Made by a program: the position numbers and the translations under genes. From a virus, in UHGV virus genome UHGV-0038737: a DNA stretch of 31,147 bases; one strand, 5' to 3'. This document shows positions 1 to 8,274 of the stretch, piece after piece. The first letter of the stretch is position 1. Every line of letters begins with the position of its first letter. A model generated the notes under the pieces. It did not search any database, had not been told where the DNA came from, and worked only from the letters and a program-made list of their open reading frames with translations.

Positions 1-78
1 TGGGCCGATGCTGACCCGTACGTAGCGGCAGGAGTCTATGAACACGTTTCAGTGAAACCATTTAAGAAAGTGTTCTAA
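1..78 (+). CDS. 3' end of an unidentified ORF that begins upstream of the window
   Basis: Frame 1 is open from position 1 to TAA at 76-78 (...WADADPYVAAGVYEHVSVKPFKKVF*), followed by a hairpin at 143-177. Too short to assign a product. Confidence 0.25.
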   Translation, partial: WADADPYVAAGVYEHVSVKPFKKVF

Positions 79-142
79 TTTATTAGAAATTTGCACTTAA
101 ATCAAAAAGTTACGGACAATTCAACCACCAATCAATAAATTA

Positions 143-190
143 AAGGGCACATTAAAGTACACAATATTTGTGCCCTTCTCTGTTTCTTTC
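143..190. terminator. Candidate bidirectional intrinsic terminator between convergent genes
   Basis: Perfect 9-bp inverted repeat AAGGGCACA (143-151) / TGTGCCCTT (169-177), followed on the plus strand by the pyrimidine-rich run CTCTGTTTCTTTCCC and on the minus strand by TAATTTATTGATT. Lies just downstream of the invertase stop (197). Confidence 0.4.
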
Positions 191-196
191 CCGTTA

Positions 197-745
197 TCAG
201 CTAGCTGGAAACTTTTTATACAGAGTTGAGAGCCCTACTCCATACGTTTTTGATACGCTTTGTCGTGATTCACCGGTTGCCATCCGCTCCCCCATTTCCC
301 GCCATTGCTCATCCGTGAACTTAGGCCTGCGACCACCAACTCGCCCTTTTGCCCTGGCTACGGCCAGCCCTGCTAAGGTACGTTCGCTATTAAGATCAGA
401 TTCATATTGTGCTGCGGAAAGGATGTTACGAAAGTTATAGCGGCCGCTGGCTGTTTTGAGATCCACGCCATCGGTAATACTGCGGAAGTTGATACCCTTT
501 TCCTGTAACTGCTGGAACATCAACAGCGCATGCAGAACGTTGCGGCCTATCCTGTCCAGCTTCCAGACCACCAGTTCATCCCCCGGCTGCATAGTGGCGA
601 TCAGCCGTTTTAGAACCGGCCGATTCGATTTCCTCCCGCTGGCATGCTCTTCAAAAATTTTCTCACAACCCGCTGACTTGAGCGCCGTTAGTTGCAATTC
701 AGTGTCCTGGTGGTTTGTTGATACTCGGGCATAACCGTAAATCAT
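197..745 (-). CDS. Serine recombinase, DNA invertase of the Hin/Gin/Cin/Pin family
   Basis: N-terminus MIYGYARVSTNHQDTELQ with catalytic-serine context, resolvase-type core and C-terminal HTH (GESRQSVSKTYGVGLSTLYKKF). ATG at 745 preceded by AGGAG; the six-frame ORF extends to 790 but the internal Met aligns with the family N-terminus. Confidence 0.9.
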   Translation of the reverse strand: MIYGYARVSTNHQDTELQLTALKSAGCEKIFEEHASGRKSNRPVLKRLIATMQPGDELVVWKLDRIGRNVLHALLMFQQLQEKGINFRSITDGVDLKTASGRYNFRNILSAAQYESDLNSERTLAGLAVARAKGRVGGRRPKFTDEQWREMGERMATGESRQSVSKTYGVGLSTLYKKFPAS

Positions 746-749
746 GGGA

Positions 750-776
750 TTTCTCCTGTTATGAAAACAGGAGAAA
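750..776 (-). promoter_or_regulatory. Stem-loop sequestering the invertase Shine-Dalgarno
   Basis: Perfect 11-bp inverted repeat TTTCTCCTGTT / AACAGGAGAAA with a 5-nt loop. On the minus-strand mRNA the AGGAG of the invertase RBS sits in the 3' arm, 4 nt before the ATG at 745. Confidence 0.4.
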
Positions 777-804
777 CGGCGAAGCATCACCAGATTTTTG
801 ATGG

Positions 805-1104
805 TTATAAAAAAGGTTGGTTTGGGAGGGATGGGGCAAACCTATAGCGCATCGCAAGATAACTCCTCAGAACCCTCCCCATGTTACGCAGGATCCAGTA
901 CCGGTTCTCGCTTTCGTTTGTCGTCTTATCGGCGAAGTCCGGCTGGTATCGCTCGATCCATGTATTTGCATCCGCCTGACTGAAATGCCAGTTCCTCTCC
1001 TGCAGTTCAGCGATGAACTTGTCTGTATGCAGACAGAGATAGCCCTTCGGGTTTTGCTGTATGGCCGCAATAAAAGCAGCACGAATATCCGGTTGACGAG
1101 GCAT
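805..1104 (-). CDS. Hypothetical 99-aa protein, divergent from the dinI-like gene and sharing its LexA box
   Basis: ORF MPRQPDIRAAFIAAIQQNPKGYLCLHTDKFIAELQERNWHF... with ATG at 1104 and GAGGG SD about 8 nt upstream. The LexA box lies 26 nt upstream. No family recognised. Confidence 0.5.
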   Translation of the reverse strand: MPRQPDIRAAFIAAIQQNPKGYLCLHTDKFIAELQERNWHFSQADANTWIERYQPDFADKTTNESENRYWILRNMGRVLRSYLAMRYRFAPSLPNQPFL

Positions 1105-1125
1105 AAATGCACCCTCACTCGCTCA

Positions 1126-1154
1126 TTGACTGTATGTATATACAGTAGTATTTT
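1126..1154. promoter_or_regulatory. LexA (SOS) box within a divergent promoter region
   Basis: CTGTATGTATATACAG at 1130-1145 fits the CTGT-N8-ACAG consensus, with flanks gaCTGT...ACAGta. For the plus-strand dinI-like gene it overlaps a candidate -35 TTGACT (1126-1131) and -10 TATTTT (1149-1154). Confidence 0.75.
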
Positions 1155-1203
1155 TATGAAAACAGATCAAGCACAGGCAGTTTTCACTTATAAGAGGATC
1201 GGT

Positions 1204-1443
1204 ATGTTTGTTGAACTGGTTTATGACAAGCGAAATGTTGAGGGGCTCGAAGGGGCCAGGGAGATCATTCTGGCCGAACTGACGAAGCGGGTGCACCAGA
1301 TTTTCCCTGGTGCCGAAGTGAAGGTAAAGCCGATGCAGGCGAACGCGCTAAACAGCAACTGCACGAAAACAGAGAAAGAACGGCTTAATCGTATGCTTGA
1401 AGAGATGTTTGAAGAATCTGACATGTGGCTGGTTGCTGATTAA
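1204..1443 (+). CDS. dinI: DinI-family DNA-damage-inducible protein
   Basis: MFVELVYDKRNVEGLEGAREIILAELTKRVHQIFPGAEVKVKPMQANALN...EEMFEESDMWLVAD matches the DinI pattern as recalled. RBS AAGAGGA; LexA box 59 nt upstream. Only the last 80 codons of the long six-frame ORF 817-1443 are taken as real. Confidence 0.85.
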   Translation: MFVELVYDKRNVEGLEGAREIILAELTKRVHQIFPGAEVKVKPMQANALNSNCTKTEKERLNRMLEEMFEESDMWLVAD

Positions 1444-1459
1444 TTACATATTCACATCA

Positions 1460-1485
1460 CCGGGCAGTCATCCTTTTCTGCCCGG
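1460..1485. terminator. Hairpin between convergent dinI-like and tfa genes (weak terminator candidate)
   Basis: Inverted repeat CCGGGCAG (1460-1467) / CTGCCCGG (1478-1485) with a 10-nt loop. No strong U-tract on either strand. Confidence 0.3.
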
Positions 1486-1500
1486 TTAATGAAAATCACA

Positions 1501-1914
1501 TCACGCTGCGGGTTTTTCAGGCCACTGAATATCTGGCACGGTGATATCCAGCGCGTTCAGCGCATCACTGTAACTCAACCAGGCATGCAGGGCTGCGGTT
1601 TCTGAATCACTCAGTTTCATGCCCACCAGGATTTTTGTCTGCCATACAGAAATAGTCGGAGCGATTTCTGACAGCAACAGCCGCCGTTGATTTTCTGCTA
1701 TCGCCAGCGGGTCCAGTTCTGGCAGTTGTTCAATACGCGGTCCTTTCTCGTCAAATATGCCCGCGAATCCATCGGGAGGATTAAAAAACGCCAGATAGTC
1801 AGCCTCGCTCATCTCTTGCAAGTCCGCAGGTAGTGAGCCAGCCGCTTCATACGCAGACAGCATACCGTTATCGAGGTAAAATCCCTGCGTGCTGATGCTG
1901 TAAAAATATTTCAT
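1501..1914 (-). CDS. tfa: Tail fibre assembly protein (Tfa chaperone)
   Basis: MKYFYSISTQGFYLDNGMLSAYEAAGSLPADLQEMSEADYLAFFNPP... is typical of lambdoid/Mu-type Tfa. Start ATG 1 nt after the tail fibre stop. Confidence 0.85.
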   Translation of the reverse strand: MKYFYSISTQGFYLDNGMLSAYEAAGSLPADLQEMSEADYLAFFNPPDGFAGIFDEKGPRIEQLPELDPLAIAENQRRLLLSEIAPTISVWQTKILVGMKLSDSETAALHAWLSYSDALNALDITVPDIQWPEKPAA

Positions 1915-1915
1915 A

Positions 1916-2797
1916 TCAATACCCCATCACTCTTATATGAAAAAAAGGGACCCAGCCTGTCTGAGGAGTTTTAACGCTGACGGTTAAATATGTTGTTAAT
2001 AGCCCACTGCCATTATCTTTATCTCTGCATGTTTTAACATCAGCATTGTATCCGGGGGTTTGATTTCCAAATCTGTCGCCTGAAATGGACGCAACGGCAG
2101 TAATAATGCCGTTAGGTAATGCGACGGGGAGCGGCACTTTATAGTAGTGCGTATAATACGTAATACCTCCCACTGTCTGAGGGTTGTATGCTCCTACTGC
2201 GATGACGCCACCTATGAGGAAATCCATTTGATAAATATCGCCAATTTTTATCACGCTGGAGTTTGTTCCTGACCTGACATAGGTGATACCCAGATTGGAC
2301 AGCGCGGCGTCTCTGGTTGTCGCCCCGGTCCCTCCCTGGTCAATACTCAATGCTGTACTTAGCCCTTTCAGCTCTGTGATATCGCTATTTGCCCCTTTCC
2401 GGGCGAGACCACCGATGGCAGGAATGCTGAGGCTGGTGCCGTTGATTGTCACAGTGACCAGTTGGTTCGCTGAGGTACTGGCGAACGTTTCCCACGCACC
2501 GATATTCTCGTCATACTCATTGATGAGCTGAGACATGGCCTGTGCCAGTCCATCAACCGAGATAATGTCTGATACCAGAATGCCGTACTTCTGGCCGCTC
2601 AGCGCCGGGGAAGCAGCTGGAGTAACCGTCATTGACGTGGCGCTGTTCACGGATGAAATCTGGAACAGCTGCACCGGGTTAGACATCACGATAATTGTCT
2701 GCCCAGCGCGAACCTGGCTGGCCGGTGCCGTCCAGTTTGTGCCCGTCCCGGTGGCGGTATTTCCATTAATGGCGATGGTGCCGGTGTTATAAAGCAT
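1916..2797 (-). CDS. Side tail fibre protein
   Basis: Contains the conserved fibre motif LSIDQGGTGATTRDAALSNLG and Gly/Thr/Ser-rich beta-type composition. ATG at 2797 with GGAG RBS (the ORF track starts at TTG 2812). A Tfa gene follows directly. Confidence 0.8.
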   Translation of the reverse strand: MLYNTGTIAINGNTATGTGTNWTAPASQVRAGQTIIVMSNPVQLFQISSVNSATSMTVTPAASPALSGQKYGILVSDIISVDGLAQAMSQLINEYDENIGAWETFASTSANQLVTVTINGTSLSIPAIGGLARKGANSDITELKGLSTALSIDQGGTGATTRDAALSNLGITYVRSGTNSSVIKIGDIYQMDFLIGGVIAVGAYNPQTVGGITYYTHYYKVPLPVALPNGIITAVASISGDRFGNQTPGYNADVKTCRDKDNGSGLLTTYLTVSVKTPQTGWVPFFHIRVMGY

Positions 2798-2812
2798 ATT
2801 TTCTCCAGGCAA

Positions 2813-2837
2813 TAAAAAAACCCCGCCGGAGCGAGGT
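2813..2837 (-). terminator. Rho-independent terminator downstream of the lipoprotein gene
   Basis: Minus-strand RNA CCUCGC-UCCG-GCGGGG (one G-U pair) followed by UUUUUUU, 20 nt after the lipoprotein stop. Confidence 0.55.
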
Positions 2838-2857
2838 TTATGTTTAAGCGTAGTGGG

Positions 2858-3091
2858 TTATTTGCAGGTTGTTTCGGTAAATGTATTCGCACTTACCCAG
2901 CGCCAGCTGAAAGGATATCCAGCCCGGTACTGCGTCTGGTTGTTTTGTTTACGCACACCGTAAATCTGAACCGTAGTTTCCTGACCGCCAACGATTGCAG
3001 TGCCGCTGCAAACTGGTTCCTGTTTCTCAATTACGCCAGCGCATCCTGTAAGCATGACAGCGCCTGCCATGCAGATAATCAGTTTTCTCAT
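2858..3091 (-). CDS. Small lipoprotein moron (77 aa), possibly Cor-like
   Basis: Signal peptide MRKLIICMAGAVMLTGC with lipobox LTG-C. Own terminator downstream and a separate AT-rich, repeat-rich upstream region. Embedded between tail genes. Confidence 0.6.
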   Translation of the reverse strand: MRKLIICMAGAVMLTGCAGVIEKQEPVCSGTAIVGGQETTVQIYGVRKQNNQTQYRAGYPFSWRWVSANTFTETTCK

Positions 3092-3202
3092 TTTGATAGT
3101 ATCCAGAGGAATTCAGTATCTTAGACGATACCAATACAATTCTGGTGGGTATAATTGATTGGATAGATCAATATTATGTTATTGATCGCTAAAAACGATC
3201 AA

Positions 3203-3877
3203 TCAATCATAGGCCGCTGTATTTATGGCGGTTAATGAAATGCCAGTATTCGTTCCCCCTCCAGGTGAACCTGCCCCAGTGGAGGTCCCCCCTGCGTTTA
3301 TCCTCGTATTGGCCCCGTCAAACCTGCATGAAGAATAAGCATTTATCGTGTAGATAGTCGGAGGCTGGGTTGAATTATTCACAATGATGGTCTGACCCAA
3401 CTGAGCAGGTGCAACGGCCCATGACCCGCTCAGCGTCTGGTCAATATTTATCCCGCCGTTTGCACCAGGCGTGCCAACCGTCTGCAGGTCTGATAGCACA
3501 CGGGACTCATTAGTTAACACAAGCTTTCCGCTCGCATCCCATATTGCCAAACCCCATTTCGGTAATATCTGCGGGAATATGGCAAAAACGTACGCCGTTA
3601 AAGTGAAACTTTGGTTGTAGGGATTAACACCAGCAACATACACATTACCGCCGTTCCTGTAAGACATAACCGGAGTGGGCTGTGCTGTATTGGTGGTTTT
3701 GATAAAAACCATCACTGGGTAATCAGCGTTTAAAGCGATATTTTGAGCAACCTGCTGAGAACTGCCATTCGCGGATGAATTGAAGGTATACTTCCCGTAA
3801 AGACAGAAAGGCGTTGATTGTGGCGTTACAAAGGGATTCCCGTTATCCATTAATATCATCGCGCCAAATTCGGCCAT
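3203..3877 (-). CDS. Hypothetical tail-region protein (224 aa)
   Basis: ORF translationally coupled to the upstream gene (TAATG overlap at 3877). Gly/Asn/Thr-rich beta-type composition, downstream of J. Function unknown. Confidence 0.6.
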   Translation of the reverse strand: MAEFGAMILMDNGNPFVTPQSTPFCLYGKYTFNSSANGSSQQVAQNIALNADYPVMVFIKTTNTAQPTPVMSYRNGGNVYVAGVNPYNQSFTLTAYVFAIFPQILPKWGLAIWDASGKLVLTNESRVLSDLQTVGTPGANGGINIDQTLSGSWAVAPAQLGQTIIVNNSTQPPTIYTINAYSSCRFDGANTRINAGGTSTGAGSPGGGTNTGISLTAINTAAYD

Positions 3878-4179
3878 TATGCTTTCTCCATGAAAACGAC
3901 CACCTCACATTTAGAGGCCGGGTAATTACCCAGGCCCAAAGAAGAGGCTGCGGTTACGGTTATTGTGTTCCCTGACGCGACAATGCTCCTCCCTACGCTG
4001 TTACCTCCTTCATCAAGTGAGAGCGCAAAACCGACCTTCATTCCTGAGGGTACAGTGAAAGACCAGCTGCCGGAGTTTTGTCCGGCGGCAAGTTGTATAC
4101 GTCCAACAACGGAAACGGGCTTGATTCCGTAGTTGTTGGGGTTTCCCGAAGCATCCCAGGTCTGTATTCCATAAGCCAT
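3877..4179 (-). CDS. Hypothetical tail-region protein (100 aa)
   Basis: ORF starting 2 nt after the J stop and overlapping the next gene start. Function unknown. Confidence 0.6.
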   Translation of the reverse strand: MAYGIQTWDASGNPNNYGIKPVSVVGRIQLAAGQNSGSWSFTVPSGMKVGFALSLDEGGNSVGRSIVASGNTITVTAASSLGLGNYPASKCEVVVFMEKA

Positions 4180-4180
4180 A

Positions 4181-7100
4181 TCAGAACACCCCCGTTAATC
4201 GGCCAACCTGCACTCTCAGAACGTTGTTGCCATCCTTGACGCTGATTGTCTGGTTGGTCTGCTTCATGGCTCCCTCCCCAGCTGTCGAACCGTAGTTCTC
4301 AAACGTCCCGGACTTATCCAGTTTCCAGCCAACAGAGCCGGCAACATAATTGTTCGACTGGATGTAATTGCCAATTTTTGCATTGCTTATGGTCCCGTCG
4401 CCAATGACTGTATCCCTGATAATGGCCTGGCCATTCTGGATAACGAACGGCAGTGTTACAGTCCCGCCGACCATAGTAGTCACGGCGAAACGGTCTGCCA
4501 GGAAGATTACCTGTGGCTGCATGCCGGAGGGTGTATTTTGAACCCCAATACCCATCCCGGCAGCGTAATACTGCCCGTTACTGGACACCCCCACCTTGAT
4601 GTTATACATCGCGCTGAGGTTACCGTTTACATCTGCTATAGCCTGTGCGTTGACGTTTATCGCTGCACTGTTTTCGCCTGATTTAACAGTCAGAGTGTTG
4701 ATTTTTGTTGCCGAAGCCTGGGTGAAATCAGCAAGAGTTTCTGTCAGGTCCGTTGAGTTAGAGATATTGCCACCAGCTTCTGCATCCAGTGTGACCAGCG
4801 CGCGTGCGACCGCCTGGCTGGTATCGGCAATCGTAGTATCCACTCTGTCTATACTGGCACTGTTCCCGGCGTTTGTTGCTGTCTGGGAACGACGACTGAC
4901 AACCTGCGCCAGCCCATTCTGGATTATCGCAATTGCCGAATTCTTCACGCCTCCTGTCATACCGTCCATTGAAACGGAAATCTCATCGATTTTTACCGCC
5001 GCCTGCGCCAGCCCGTCAGCGTTTTCCTGTATATCTTTCGCCTGCTGCTCCAGCTCGTCGGCATGGTTTTTGATTTCGTCAGCCATGCCAGCAATTTTTT
5101 CATTGCTGTCCACTGCGCTCTCAATCAGATCTTTAAACGTAGCGGAGTCTTTGATCTCCTCCAGGATCACATCGGTGATATCGGAAACATCGATGCTGGC
5201 CTGACCTCGCACCCAGTCGGTATACCCGGACTCGTTTCCCGTTCTGTCGACCAGTTGCGCGCGATACCAGAAAATCTGCCCTGCCTTAAGACCCATCTGC
5301 TGATATTTGCGCTGCGGATAAGGCACATCGGCCAGCAGCATTGCATCATCTTCGCTACCGGTCAGGCTGTACTGAATTTCCGTCTTCAGCGTGTCTTCGG
5401 TATTCGCCGGGAATCCCCAGTTCAGCTCGATACCGAATACCACGTTTTCAGAAGCGATGAAGCCAACCGGCTTCGGTGGGTTTCCCACTTTACCCGTCAA
5501 CGTTTTCTCTTCTGAATAGCCCCACCCAGATGAAATTTCGGCGGCATTGATGGCACGCACGCGAACCAGGTAGCGTCCTGCATAAATCCCCGGAACATCG
5601 AATGACGTGGTGGAGCTGCGCGGCACATTCACCCAGTTCCCGTCATTGCGACGCCACTGTGCCTCATACGCGATAGCATTTTTCGCCTGGTCCCAGCTGA
5701 CGCGCATGGTCTCAACGCTGATATTCTGCTGAACGACAGAAAACGAACTGATCGCGATATTAGCTGGCGGGGACTGATTACCGGGCGGAATTACACTTAT
5801 TGGCCGCTGGTCGATAATGGCACCGGTATCGATACGCGCATATTTATCCGGATCGTGCAAAGCGCCAGCAATCGAATACGTTCCGTCATTATTATCCGTA
5901 ACGCTGATAACGCGATATTGCTGCGCGTAAAGCTCTTCAGACTCGACAATCCACACCGATTCCACTGCAGGTGTTTCGCTGTATGCCGTTGTCACAGTGA
6001 CGGCCCGCCCGTTTACGCTCTGTATCGTCCTGCTCTGCGATGCGCCGGACGGAAGGTTAACCATCAGACGGCTTCCGGGAGCGGCTGCCGAATCACGATC
6101 AAGCGTGATAACGCGACCGTTAACCGCACTGATGCGCCCTCCCATCACCTTTCCGGATAACAGATCATCGGCAACCGCGATAATATAACCAGGCTGTGGA
6201 ATGTTGCCGTCCAGGCCAACATCAAACGATACGATGCGATCCTTGTTATTGGTCAGAATCCCCCAGCGTCCCTTACGGTTTGCCTCCGACTGCCGGGTAC
6301 AGCCAATGGCTGTCATTTCGAGCTGGTTTGTGCCAAACCGAGCGACGAGCTCCTGTTCAAAAACCGGCTCCATCGCATCTGCGTAGGCATTACCCGGATC
6401 AGACCAGGAAACCAGCGCAGTGGTATAGCGGTTTTTAATGGTGCTGCCAGAATAGGTAAAGCGGCCGTCAACCACGTTAGCGCGGGTGTAGCTGTAATCC
6501 ACATCACGGGGCATATCTGCCAGCGCAACGATTTGATCGCCGCCCCAGTACGTCATGCCACGGAATATGGCCGCAAAATCACGCAAAACGGTATACGCAT
6601 CATTCCTCTCCTGCACATAAACGTTGCACGTATAGCGGGGTTCTGTTCCGGTACCGCCTTTACCGTCGGGAACTGGCTGATCGCAATACTGCGCAACCTG
6701 GTAAAGTGTCCATTTATCAATATTTGCCGCCGTCAGGCGGTCGCCAAGTCCGAAACGGTCGCTCACCACCAGATCGTAAAAAATCCACGCCGGATTGTCC
6801 GTCCATGCCCACTTAAACGCCCCCGTCCAGGTGCCGCTATAGGTCCGGGTTTCCGGATCGTAAGTATCCGGCACGCGGATAACGCGTCCGCGCGGTTCAC
6901 AGGAAATTTGCGGGATGGAGCCGTTAAACTGGCTTGAGTCGAATTCGATGTACAGCAGCGCGGTATTTGGATAACGCAGTTTGGCGTCAATGACCTCTGT
7001 GTAGCTCTGCAGCGTCATCGTGTCGCCAATTTTCGCGCTGTTGGCATCCGCTGTTAGCTTACGCAGGCGCACCGTCCATGTGCTGCCTGCCTGCGGTAGG

Positions 7101-7630
7101 TCGACGCGATGGCTGCGTTCGTAGCCGGAAGTTGTCTTGCCGGTTACGCTGGTATTAAGTACCGTCTGCCAGGTGCCGCCATCGGTCTGCAGATCAATAG
7201 CGTAGTTAATTGAATAGCCAACCAGATCGCCATCGTCCTCCTGTTTAAAAAGCGATGGCCACTTGAGGCGCAGGCGAACGGCTGACAGTTGCGTGTTGGT
7301 AAAGGTATGTGTCCAGCCGGTGGTGCTTGACACTTCGGTGCCCACGCTGATTTCATTTTCGGTGCCGGGGATACCCTGAATATATTTTTGTGCCTGAGTC
7401 CCCGGACGAAATTCCCACGTAACGCCGCTGAAGTTTTGGGAGCCGTCGGCGTTCTCCAGCGCCGTTCCGTCCAGGTAGATATCCTTCCCGGTGAGCTGTC
7501 CAGCAAACTCCCCTTCCCCAAGCGCAACGAGGATCTTTGCCTTCGCTACAGATTGCAGATCATCAGGCTGTTCGGTGGGAGTTCGGGAACTGGAGCTCCC
7601 GCCTTTTCGTCCGGTAATTGTTTTAGCCAT
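4181..7630 (-). CDS. J: Tail tip / host specificity protein J (central tail fibre)
   Basis: 1149 aa, of lambda gpJ size, with fibronectin-like middle region and a distinct C-terminal domain. Position directly after I. Confidence 0.92.
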   Translation of the reverse strand: MAKTITGRKGGSSSSRTPTEQPDDLQSVAKAKILVALGEGEFAGQLTGKDIYLDGTALENADGSQNFSGVTWEFRPGTQAQKYIQGIPGTENEISVGTEVSSTTGWTHTFTNTQLSAVRLRLKWPSLFKQEDDGDLVGYSINYAIDLQTDGGTWQTVLNTSVTGKTTSGYERSHRVDLPQAGSTWTVRLRKLTADANSAKIGDTMTLQSYTEVIDAKLRYPNTALLYIEFDSSQFNGSIPQISCEPRGRVIRVPDTYDPETRTYSGTWTGAFKWAWTDNPAWIFYDLVVSDRFGLGDRLTAANIDKWTLYQVAQYCDQPVPDGKGGTGTEPRYTCNVYVQERNDAYTVLRDFAAIFRGMTYWGGDQIVALADMPRDVDYSYTRANVVDGRFTYSGSTIKNRYTTALVSWSDPGNAYADAMEPVFEQELVARFGTNQLEMTAIGCTRQSEANRKGRWGILTNNKDRIVSFDVGLDGNIPQPGYIIAVADDLLSGKVMGGRISAVNGRVITLDRDSAAAPGSRLMVNLPSGASQSRTIQSVNGRAVTVTTAYSETPAVESVWIVESEELYAQQYRVISVTDNNDGTYSIAGALHDPDKYARIDTGAIIDQRPISVIPPGNQSPPANIAISSFSVVQQNISVETMRVSWDQAKNAIAYEAQWRRNDGNWVNVPRSSTTSFDVPGIYAGRYLVRVRAINAAEISSGWGYSEEKTLTGKVGNPPKPVGFIASENVVFGIELNWGFPANTEDTLKTEIQYSLTGSEDDAMLLADVPYPQRKYQQMGLKAGQIFWYRAQLVDRTGNESGYTDWVRGQASIDVSDITDVILEEIKDSATFKDLIESAVDSNEKIAGMADEIKNHADELEQQAKDIQENADGLAQAAVKIDEISVSMDGMTGGVKNSAIAIIQNGLAQVVSRRSQTATNAGNSASIDRVDTTIADTSQAVARALVTLDAEAGGNISNSTDLTETLADFTQASATKINTLTVKSGENSAAINVNAQAIADVNGNLSAMYNIKVGVSSNGQYYAAGMGIGVQNTPSGMQPQVIFLADRFAVTTMVGGTVTLPFVIQNGQAIIRDTVIGDGTISNAKIGNYIQSNNYVAGSVGWKLDKSGTFENYGSTAGEGAMKQTNQTISVKDGNNVLRVQVGRLTGVF

Positions 7631-7639
7631 ATCGCGCCC

Positions 7640-7668
7640 ATAAAAAAAGCCACCCGAAGGTGGCTTGT
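7640..7668 (-). terminator. Intrinsic terminator-like hairpin immediately upstream of J
   Basis: Minus-strand RNA AAGCCACC-UUCG-GGUGGCUU followed by UUUUUUUAU, ending about 11 nt before the J ATG. Confidence 0.6.
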
Positions 7669-7683
7669 AAAAAGGTTTGTTAA

Positions 7684-8274
7684 CTACTGCTGATCTTCGA
7701 CATAAATTCCGGCAGAAATAATTGCCCCGCCGATTCTCCGGCGGCCGTACAGGAGCGGAACCGGGTAACCCTGTGCGGCGGTATTTGTGACTCCGCCGAA
7801 CGCGTATGAGGCGCGGTTATCTGAGCTCTGTTTGCTGGCCAGCCCCGCTGGTTGAGGGGAAAGCATCTGAACAACCCCGCCAATCATCATTGCGGCACCG
7901 AATTTGTATAAGAATGGTGATGCCGCAGCCCAGGGTGTGAAATTAAGCACCGCCCCAACGGCAACCAGAACTGCACCAAGTATTGTCTGGAGTAATCCGG
8001 CCTTTTTGCTCCCGATAATCACCGGGACAATGCGAATGACATCGCCGGTGACCGGGTAACCCAGGTCATCAACACCAATATTCTTTTTCCCTTTGAATAC
8101 TGAATAAGTGAGACCACGGCGTTGGCTGGAAATCATAAACTGCTCAAAGCCCGGTATAGTCTTTGCCAGCGCAACACTCGCTTCGTTCACGCGGGAAATC
8201 AGGCGATGGTGAACTTTACCGAATGTTTTCCCGAGCACGCCGCCAAGCTCAATCCGGGTCATTACTTCCTGCAT
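7684..8274 (-). CDS. I: Tail assembly protein I
   Basis: MTRIELGGVLGKTFG... and the C-terminal hydrophobic Gly/Ala-rich region resemble lambda gpI. Alternative start at 8262 overlaps the K stop as TAATG. Confidence 0.85.
   Translation of the reverse strand: MQEVMTRIELGGVLGKTFGKVHHRLISRVNEASVALAKTIPGFEQFMISSQRRGLTYSVFKGKKNIGVDDLGYPVTGDVIRIVPVIIGSKKAGLLQTILGAVLVAVGAVLNFTPWAAASPFLYKFGAAMMIGGVVQMLSPQPAGLASKQSSDNRASYAFGGVTNTAAQGYPVPLLYGRRRIGGAIISAGIYVEDQQ

Follow-up and report, generated by a model that had tools for sequence, protein, structure and literature searches.

An intact PinL-type DNA invertase, probably orphaned by replacement of its tail-fibre cassette, with an inherited leader hairpin predicted to hold its translation low

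Gin of phage Mu (G segment) and Cin of P1 (C segment) follow the same host-range switching logic on tail fibres as the lambdoid PinL lineage to which the gene studied here belongs. Pin of e14 (pixL/pixR, P segment), a small serine invertase 55% identical to the protein described below, has its proximal crossover site ~80–85 nt upstream of the ATG and acts on a segment that, as in the relatives of our locus, carries alternative fibre ends and tfa genes. Lambdoid prophages are also already known to carry orphan invertases: PinQ (Qin) and PinR (Rac) are serine invertases that lie by stf/tfa and have no invertible segment of their own, and PinQ is reported to invert the P segment of e14 in trans (PMC12529663). 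The closest described counterparts are gp30 of HK225 (JQ086371), PinL of phi80 (JX871397) and gp26 of mEp237, which are the same gene in the same place beside attP/attR at yciI. HK225 gp30 is annotated as "DNA invertase", and the phi80 GenBank record names the gene pinL, labels the hairpin IR3 and lists the neighbouring fibre fragments as pseudogenes. The locus is thus already known and annotated, an ordinary leftover and not a new system.

We analysed a 31,147-nt stretch of viral DNA (UHGV virus genome UHGV-0038737; hereafter the window), which right of position 78 is a lambdoid prophage at the phi80 attachment site, beside yciI, and spans ~31 kb of a prophage of roughly 47 kb (Table 1). Its left 3.2 kb are 98% identical to HK225, with phi80, mEp237 and mEpX1 matching too, and the closest sequence found for the window as a whole is a prophage of E. 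coli ECCRA-119, at 97.8–99.2% identity over the aligned blocks. The invertase gene sits at the attR end of this phi80/HK225-like prophage. A sequence-only reading of the window had placed it next to the tail-fibre and Tfa genes; both are indeed nearby, but a 99-aa ORF and a dinI-family gene intervene. The last codons of that ORF extend into the crossover site, and PGAP calls its equivalent a pseudogene lacking the C-terminus. Two stretches of the window, one in the N-terminal part of the fibre gene (2341–2807) and one in part of the C-terminal region of the J-type tip protein (4386–5212), have no megablast match in HK225 or ECCRA-119 and are local mosaic replacements in receptor-binding genes; the fibre of HK225 differs from the window's in its N-terminal part. 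The ECCRA-119 annotation lists its fibre gene as a pseudogene.

Table 1. Features at the left end of the window
Feature	Position	Strand	Basis or remark
yciI 3' end (host gene)	1–78	+	annotated in matching genomes
att core, att80 type	~60–76		HK225 attP core maps here
Serine DNA invertase, 182 aa, phi80 PinL / HK225 gp30 lineage	197–745	-	Pfam, Gin structure
Leader hairpin SL2	750–776	-	11 perfect pairs, 5-nt loop
Small stem-loop SL1 (GGUGA/UCGCC)	777–792	-	abuts SL2 directly; terminator-like score
pix/gix-type 26-bp crossover site	805–830		centre 817–818; half-site matrix
40-bp junction, invertase module / HK140-like module	831–870		homology breakpoints either side
99-aa ORF, homologue of HK225_029 and HK140_027	805–1104	-	
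dinI-family gene	1204–1443	+	Pfam DinI, E 5e-22
tfa, single copy	1501–1914	-	Pfam Caudo_TAP, E 1e-18
Side tail-fibre gene	1916–2797	-	
cor	2858–3091	-	followed by two small ORFs, then J-type tip protein

The invertase is full length and carries Resolvase (E 3.6e-39) and HTH_7 (E 1.5e-9) domains in Pfam searches. Its best relative of solved structure is Gin (3UJ3, E 1.4e-56 over residues 1–181), with gamma-delta resolvase (E 4e-25) and Tn3 resolvase (E 4e-19) far behind, which supports the Hin/Gin/Pin-family membership proposed from the sequence-only reading. The protein is 55% identical to PinE, 51–52% to Gin and ~52% to Cin, and its amino-acid identity is 100% both to the mEp237 invertase and to invertases of loci that have paired crossover sites. 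Translation from the ATG at 745–743 gives MIYGYARVST, with YARVST at residues 5–10 and the catalytic serine at residue 10. An N-terminal extension from GTG 790 or ATG 787 (a 197-aa ORF) was considered and rejected: relatives have a 1-nt indel between the hairpin and the ATG that breaks this frame, and GTG 790 is therefore not the start. The enzyme is catalytically intact and, we infer, active. Its helix-E region differs from that of Gin and Cin in the comparison made (GRYNFRNILSAAQYESDL versus GRFFFHVMGALAEMEREL). The AT-rich, Fis-motif-like G-N13-C sequences that gin has at ~101 and ~147 do not recur at these positions of the window gene, and synonymous variation shows no clear dip over codons 25–60; the Fis motif is too degenerate for this to speak against an enhancer. 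PinQ and PinR, at 37% identity, belong to a different subfamily. They also lie in the opposite orientation to the window gene, with their 3' end facing tfa, and around them we found neither crossover sites by the matrix described below nor a hairpin over the Shine–Dalgarno sequence upstream.

Among 80 relatives from IMG/VR, 59 have a pair of crossover sites with AA/TT centres lying 1.2–3.2 kb apart, 20 have a solitary site and one has a mismatched pair, and an invertase ORF of 179–188 aa is kept in all of them, paired and solitary alike. The arrangement is exemplified by E. coli 1094 (locus L002), in which the same invertase is followed by an inverted fibre C-terminus with its tfa and then by a second tfa and the fibre gene, so that the locus holds two fibre C-termini and two tfa genes, inverted relative to each other; the proximal site (4805–4830 of that locus) and the distal site, inside the fibre gene (6354–6379), have opposite TT/AA centres, and exchange at the centre is predicted to join ...ALTNL to QLGEAAK... 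in frame. Two further loci, L043 and L047, share an 1871-bp segment that runs one way in the first and the other way in the second, with its ends at the predicted site centres and with 100% identical invertase flanks, and the PinL-type family is therefore active. Site pairs likewise occur in genomes of Pseudocitrobacter, Erwinia, Morganella and Kluyvera. In several relatives the distal site is identical to that of e14, CTCTCGAAAACCTTGGTTTGGGAGAA, and CTCTCACAAACCTTGGTTTGGGAGAA is a distal site of the family. In most relatives, the enzyme flips a 1.2–3.2-kb segment of alternative fibre C-termini and tfa genes, whose proximal boundary is the site 85 nt upstream of the invertase ATG and whose distal boundary is a site inside the fibre gene, at the conserved codons ...L(T/S)NLGLG.... 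As a family, the lambdoid PinL copies are numerous and active in tail-fibre inversion, and about one quarter of those examined have lost the distal site.

Several loci in this collection depart from the common arrangement. Phage mEpX1 (JQ182727) has a site pair at 2252–2277 and 3751–3776, ~1.5 kb apart, with complementary TC/GA centres and scores of 20.1 and 15.1 bits, and the DNA between the sites holds a single fibre C-terminus and one small ORF, without an alternative cassette. Flipping this stretch would detach the fibre end, so that mEpX1 possibly has an on/off rather than an either/or switch. The mEpX1 invertase (1638–2186 of its locus) is a chimera, with Pin/Gin-like sequence over the first ~60 residues (MQIGYVRVSTNDQNTDLQR...) and the rest identical to the window protein, and its leader and site centre (GA) differ in keeping with this. 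The fibre gene of HK140 (JQ086370) holds a strong gix-like site at 4018–4043, GTCTCCTAAACC GA GGTTTGTGCGAC, scoring 20.8 bits, and the region examined has no invertase gene, an orphan site that mirrors the window's orphan invertase. Among six draft loci, several contigs end a few hundred bases upstream of the invertase, and one Kluyvera assembly has the invertase region split over contigs of 202 and 426 bp; such breaks upstream of the invertase are the pattern expected for a segment present in both orientations.

We modelled crossover sites with a half-site weight matrix built from the relatives, with the window excluded. As positive controls, the matrix found exactly two sites with complementary centres in L002 (21.5 and 17.3 bits), e14 (27.6 and 23.4 bits) and Mu (23.1 and 23.1 bits). 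A matrix built without e14 and Mu still recovered both pairs (26.0 and 21.5 bits in e14, 20.8 bits for both gix sites of Mu), and the family sites are therefore of the pix/gix class. Within the window there is one site, TTATAAAAAAGG TT GGTTTGGGAGGG, at 20.4 bits by the matrix that leaves the window out. Read on the invertase strand, it is CCCTCCCAAACC AA CCTTTTTTATAA, nearly the same as the e14 proximal pix site of the K-12 sequence (TTCTCCCAAACC AA CGTTTATGAAAA): e14 and the window share the fibre-side half-site TTCTCCCAAACC and the AA/TT centre, which in Mu is GA/TC, whereas the outer half-site ends in ...AAAGG in the window and in ...AAACG or ...AAACC in the e14 comparison. The site begins 85 nt upstream of the ATG, as do the proximal sites of all close relatives, and the position just upstream of the gene is also that of e14 and Mu.

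This site has no partner in any of the sequences searched. The next best match in the window scores 7.5 bits, and the top match in shuffled sequence averages 10.9 ± 2.4 bits. The complete HK225 genome has only one site at 20.4 bits, followed by a match of 13.1 bits with a non-matching centre, and the complete ECCRA-119 prophage with its host flanks likewise has a single site, the next match reaching 9.2 bits; host DNA to the left, from ompW to yciI, has none. The position in the window fibre gene equivalent to the distal site (2279–2304) scores -9.6 bits, and the best anywhere in 1901–2845 scores -2.0. Whole-site matching returned no inverted partner of the 26-mer at 17/26 or better, and a generic inverted-repeat search over positions 1–8000 returned chance-level pairs only. 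Din invertases use poor secondary sites at low frequency, and a matrix scan would miss these. The window also has no inverted duplicate of fibre or tfa sequence, only one tfa and one fibre end; it thus differs from e14 in having one site, not two, and no alternative cassette, and from Mu and P1 in having no invertible segment.

These searches bear on several claims of the sequence-only reading. It had reported no crossover-site pair by eye, which holds as far as a pair is concerned but had overlooked the single site at 805–830; the search for inverted repeats and hix/gix-like sites that it proposed has now been run and gives that one site without a partner. Its remark that an inverted alternative fibre/Tfa copy is missing is borne out by computation. 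Of its two explanations, an orphan enzyme is supported by the one crossover site and the lack of a fibre equivalent, and sites lying partly outside the window are contradicted by HK225 and the ECCRA-119 prophage, which, complete, hold the same single site.

How the partner was lost can be traced by comparison with the paired loci. Residues 1–171 of the window fibre are 80% identical to the L002 fibre, and the similarity stops at ALSNLGI versus ALTNLGL, a point that coincides exactly with the distal site of L002. On the invertase side, homology to the paired relatives ends at ~828–840, just past the inner half-site, and from 871 on the sequence is common to HK140. We propose that a fixed fibre C-terminus with its own tfa, dinI and the small ORF replaced the variable fibre end and the alternative cassette, and that the distal site was lost because of this replacement. 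Of its two junctions, one would fall within the fibre gene, on the upstream side of the distal site, and the second 0–40 bp past the proximal site, the only crossover site left. A junction made by the invertase itself at a secondary site was also considered: the homology breaks at ~830–840, after the whole inner half-site, not at 817/818, and with the break away from that centre nothing suggests that the invertase made the junction. With a single site, there is no inversion substrate in cis and the invertase is an orphan: the window copy is a Din member by protein and by site and an orphan by context. The orphan state is probably recent, and from sequence alone we would expect no inversion in this strain.

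HK225 is 98% identical at the DNA level over the invertase, small ORF, dinI, tfa and fibre C-terminus, and its solitary site is identical. The phi80 PinL is truncated to 172 aa, without its HTH end, whereas the window copy is full length, and the phi80 hairpin has C-G at the stem base where the window has U-A. With its fibre pseudogene fragments and truncated pinL, phi80 represents a further stage in the decay of the switch.

The ribosome-binding site of the invertase, as the sequence-only reading had it, is buried in a perfect 11-bp inverted repeat. On the mRNA-sense strand, 776–766 (TTTCTCCTGTT) pairs across the loop TTCAT with 760–750 (AACAGGAGAAA), giving 11 perfect pairs, or 12 counting G777.U749, and the 3' arm contains the Shine–Dalgarno sequence AGGAG (757–753), 7 nt ahead of the ATG. 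The 31 kb hold no perfect 11-bp hairpin other than this stem-loop, SL2; first-order Markov simulations give an expectation of 0.11. The isolated stem has a predicted stability of -14 to -16 kcal/mol, the 121-nt leader folds with a z-score of -4.8 against shuffles, and the mean ensemble probability of being unpaired over positions -15 to -4 is 0.04. By the same prediction, the leaders of e14 (0.49) and Mu (0.59) leave the Shine–Dalgarno sequence far less occluded, and occlusion in e14 is weak compared with the window. Across 19 distinct leader variants the SL2 stem is conserved, with the bases around it varying freely and 99% of cells paired; 9 of its 12 pairs never vary, one shows a compensatory change from U-A to C-G (phi80 type) and one contig has a C.A mismatch. 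Covariation is weak, a score as high as that observed being reached in 40 of 500 shuffles, and the 3' arm is also constrained as the Shine–Dalgarno sequence. SL2 is present in paired and solitary loci alike; because loci with intact flipping segments have it too, it is a feature of the lineage and not specific to orphans.

The 11–12-bp stem, at about -15 kcal/mol, would lock AGGAG in the mRNA and keep translation very low, as the sequence-only reading proposed; the predicted fold and the strictness of its conservation agree with this. The stability of hairpins over the Shine–Dalgarno sequence is reported by de Smit and van Duin to set expression, and on that relation a stem of ~-15 kcal/mol should cut initiation by orders of magnitude. 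Low invertase levels are to be expected because the enzyme need act only rarely. SL2 thus probably limits translation, given a transcript that includes its 5' arm, and the start of such a transcript is itself a prediction: a consensus scan found no promoter on the - strand between 750 and 1200, and our guess is that a -10-like TATAAC inside the outer half-site forms part of one. SL1 is likewise conserved, and its variants with G.U and U.G wobbles keep their pairing on the mRNA-sense strand only. It leads into the U-rich 5' arm of SL2, and the stretch from 792 to 777 scored as terminator-like. In the mEpX1 group, whose leader is unrelated in sequence, the Shine–Dalgarno sequence is predicted to be paired as well. 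The closing G.U, the SL1 wobbles and the mEpX1 pairing hint at a role at the RNA level on the invertase strand. A leader peptide coupled to the gene through an overlapping ATGA was rejected, with no conserved start codon in frame and a TAA in the loop that stops several variants.

As a side observation on these leaders, five relatives and others have CTGATAACC(A/T)GG ~45–55 nt upstream of the ATG, a motif common to otherwise different leaders that belong to the 88%- and 72%-identical invertase subgroups and that could be part of a promoter or regulatory site. The window has CATCAAAAATCTGG in its place (783–796, in the region upstream of SL1).

We consider it likely that the window holds an intact Din invertase left an orphan in cis by cassette replacement, whose inherited hairpin should hold translation very low. 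The enzyme might instead be retained for action in trans on the fibre segments of other prophages, whether an e14-type P segment or one of the same family. Action in trans is possible, given that the pix half-site and the AA/TT centre are common to both sets of sites: the family sites are of pix type, the two e14 sites, with that same centre, reach 26.0 and 21.5 bits in a matrix made without e14, and several relatives share the e14 distal site CTCTCGAAAACCTTGGTTTGGGAGAA outright. The ORF is intact, the protein is 100% identical to copies beside segments that evidently flip, and there is the precedent of PinQ on the e14 P segment (PMC12529663). Yet the window has no second invertible segment, the protein shares only 55% of its residues with PinE and 37% with PinQ/PinR, the truncated phi80 copy suggests that orphan copies can simply decay, and recent loss of the segment would equally leave an intact ORF; we regard retention for this purpose as unlikely. 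Continued flipping in cis, through a partner outside the window or a degenerate site inside it, we regard as very nearly out of the question. The window covers only part of the prophage, and secondary-site recombination is known for Cin-type enzymes, but neither the complete HK225 nor the near-identical, complete ECCRA-119 prophage has a second site, the best other match in the window falls under the shuffle mean, and no copy of the conserved fibre half-site turns up within 2 mismatches, nor is there an inverted coding duplicate.

The 27-bp palindrome could also be a DNA operator for a dimeric protein or, together with SL1, a transcriptional stop or insulator. A protein-binding palindrome would account for a near-invariant stem as well as an RNA helix does, the one compensatory change keeps the symmetry either way, and the terminator-like score from 792 to 777 goes with a U-rich stretch. 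That the conserved G.U closing pair and the SL1 wobbles pair only on the mRNA-sense strand argues against this reading, as does the occlusion predicted for the unrelated mEpX1-group leader, which points to RNA-level action; no U-run follows SL2, and no Rfam family matches (none near 750–800 at E up to 1). A LexA box in particular was rejected, since the arms are spaced as CTG-N9-CAG and not CTG-N10-CAG, a LexA-like box lying instead at 1128–1147. Taken together, an operator or stop seems quite improbable. More elaborately, the SL1 and SL2 leader may be a regulated translational switch that times fibre switching, with orphans kept for PinQ-like flipping in trans, a combination that we offer as a speculation with little probability; temperature, a trans-acting RNA or protein, or read-through in a late or SOS-induced state might open such a switch.

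On the preferred reading of a cis orphan left by cassette replacement, the locus should be labelled as a PinL-type orphan invertase that retains a solitary crossover site and not as a working host-range switch, and for the window itself this matters little beyond correct annotation. The PinL lineage as a whole offers a convenient natural series for studying the decay of a switch and the action of orphans in trans, and its invariant hairpin over the Shine–Dalgarno sequence is a candidate mechanism, simple and testable, for keeping invertase dosage low.

Two further elements lie between the invertase and the fibre genes. The sequence GACTGTATGTATATACAGTA at 1128–1147 matches CTGT-N8-ACAG, the pattern of a LexA box. 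It is located between the divergent dinI and 99-aa ORF and overlaps a predicted + strand promoter (1126–1154); were the small ORF under SOS control and transcribed on through SL1, the mRNA of the orphan invertase could be SOS-inducible. Between the convergent dinI and tfa, at 1459–1486, is a perfect 9-bp GC-rich hairpin (CCGGGCAGT...ACTGCCCGG), likely a bidirectional terminator that would halt ordinary late transcription short of the invertase side.
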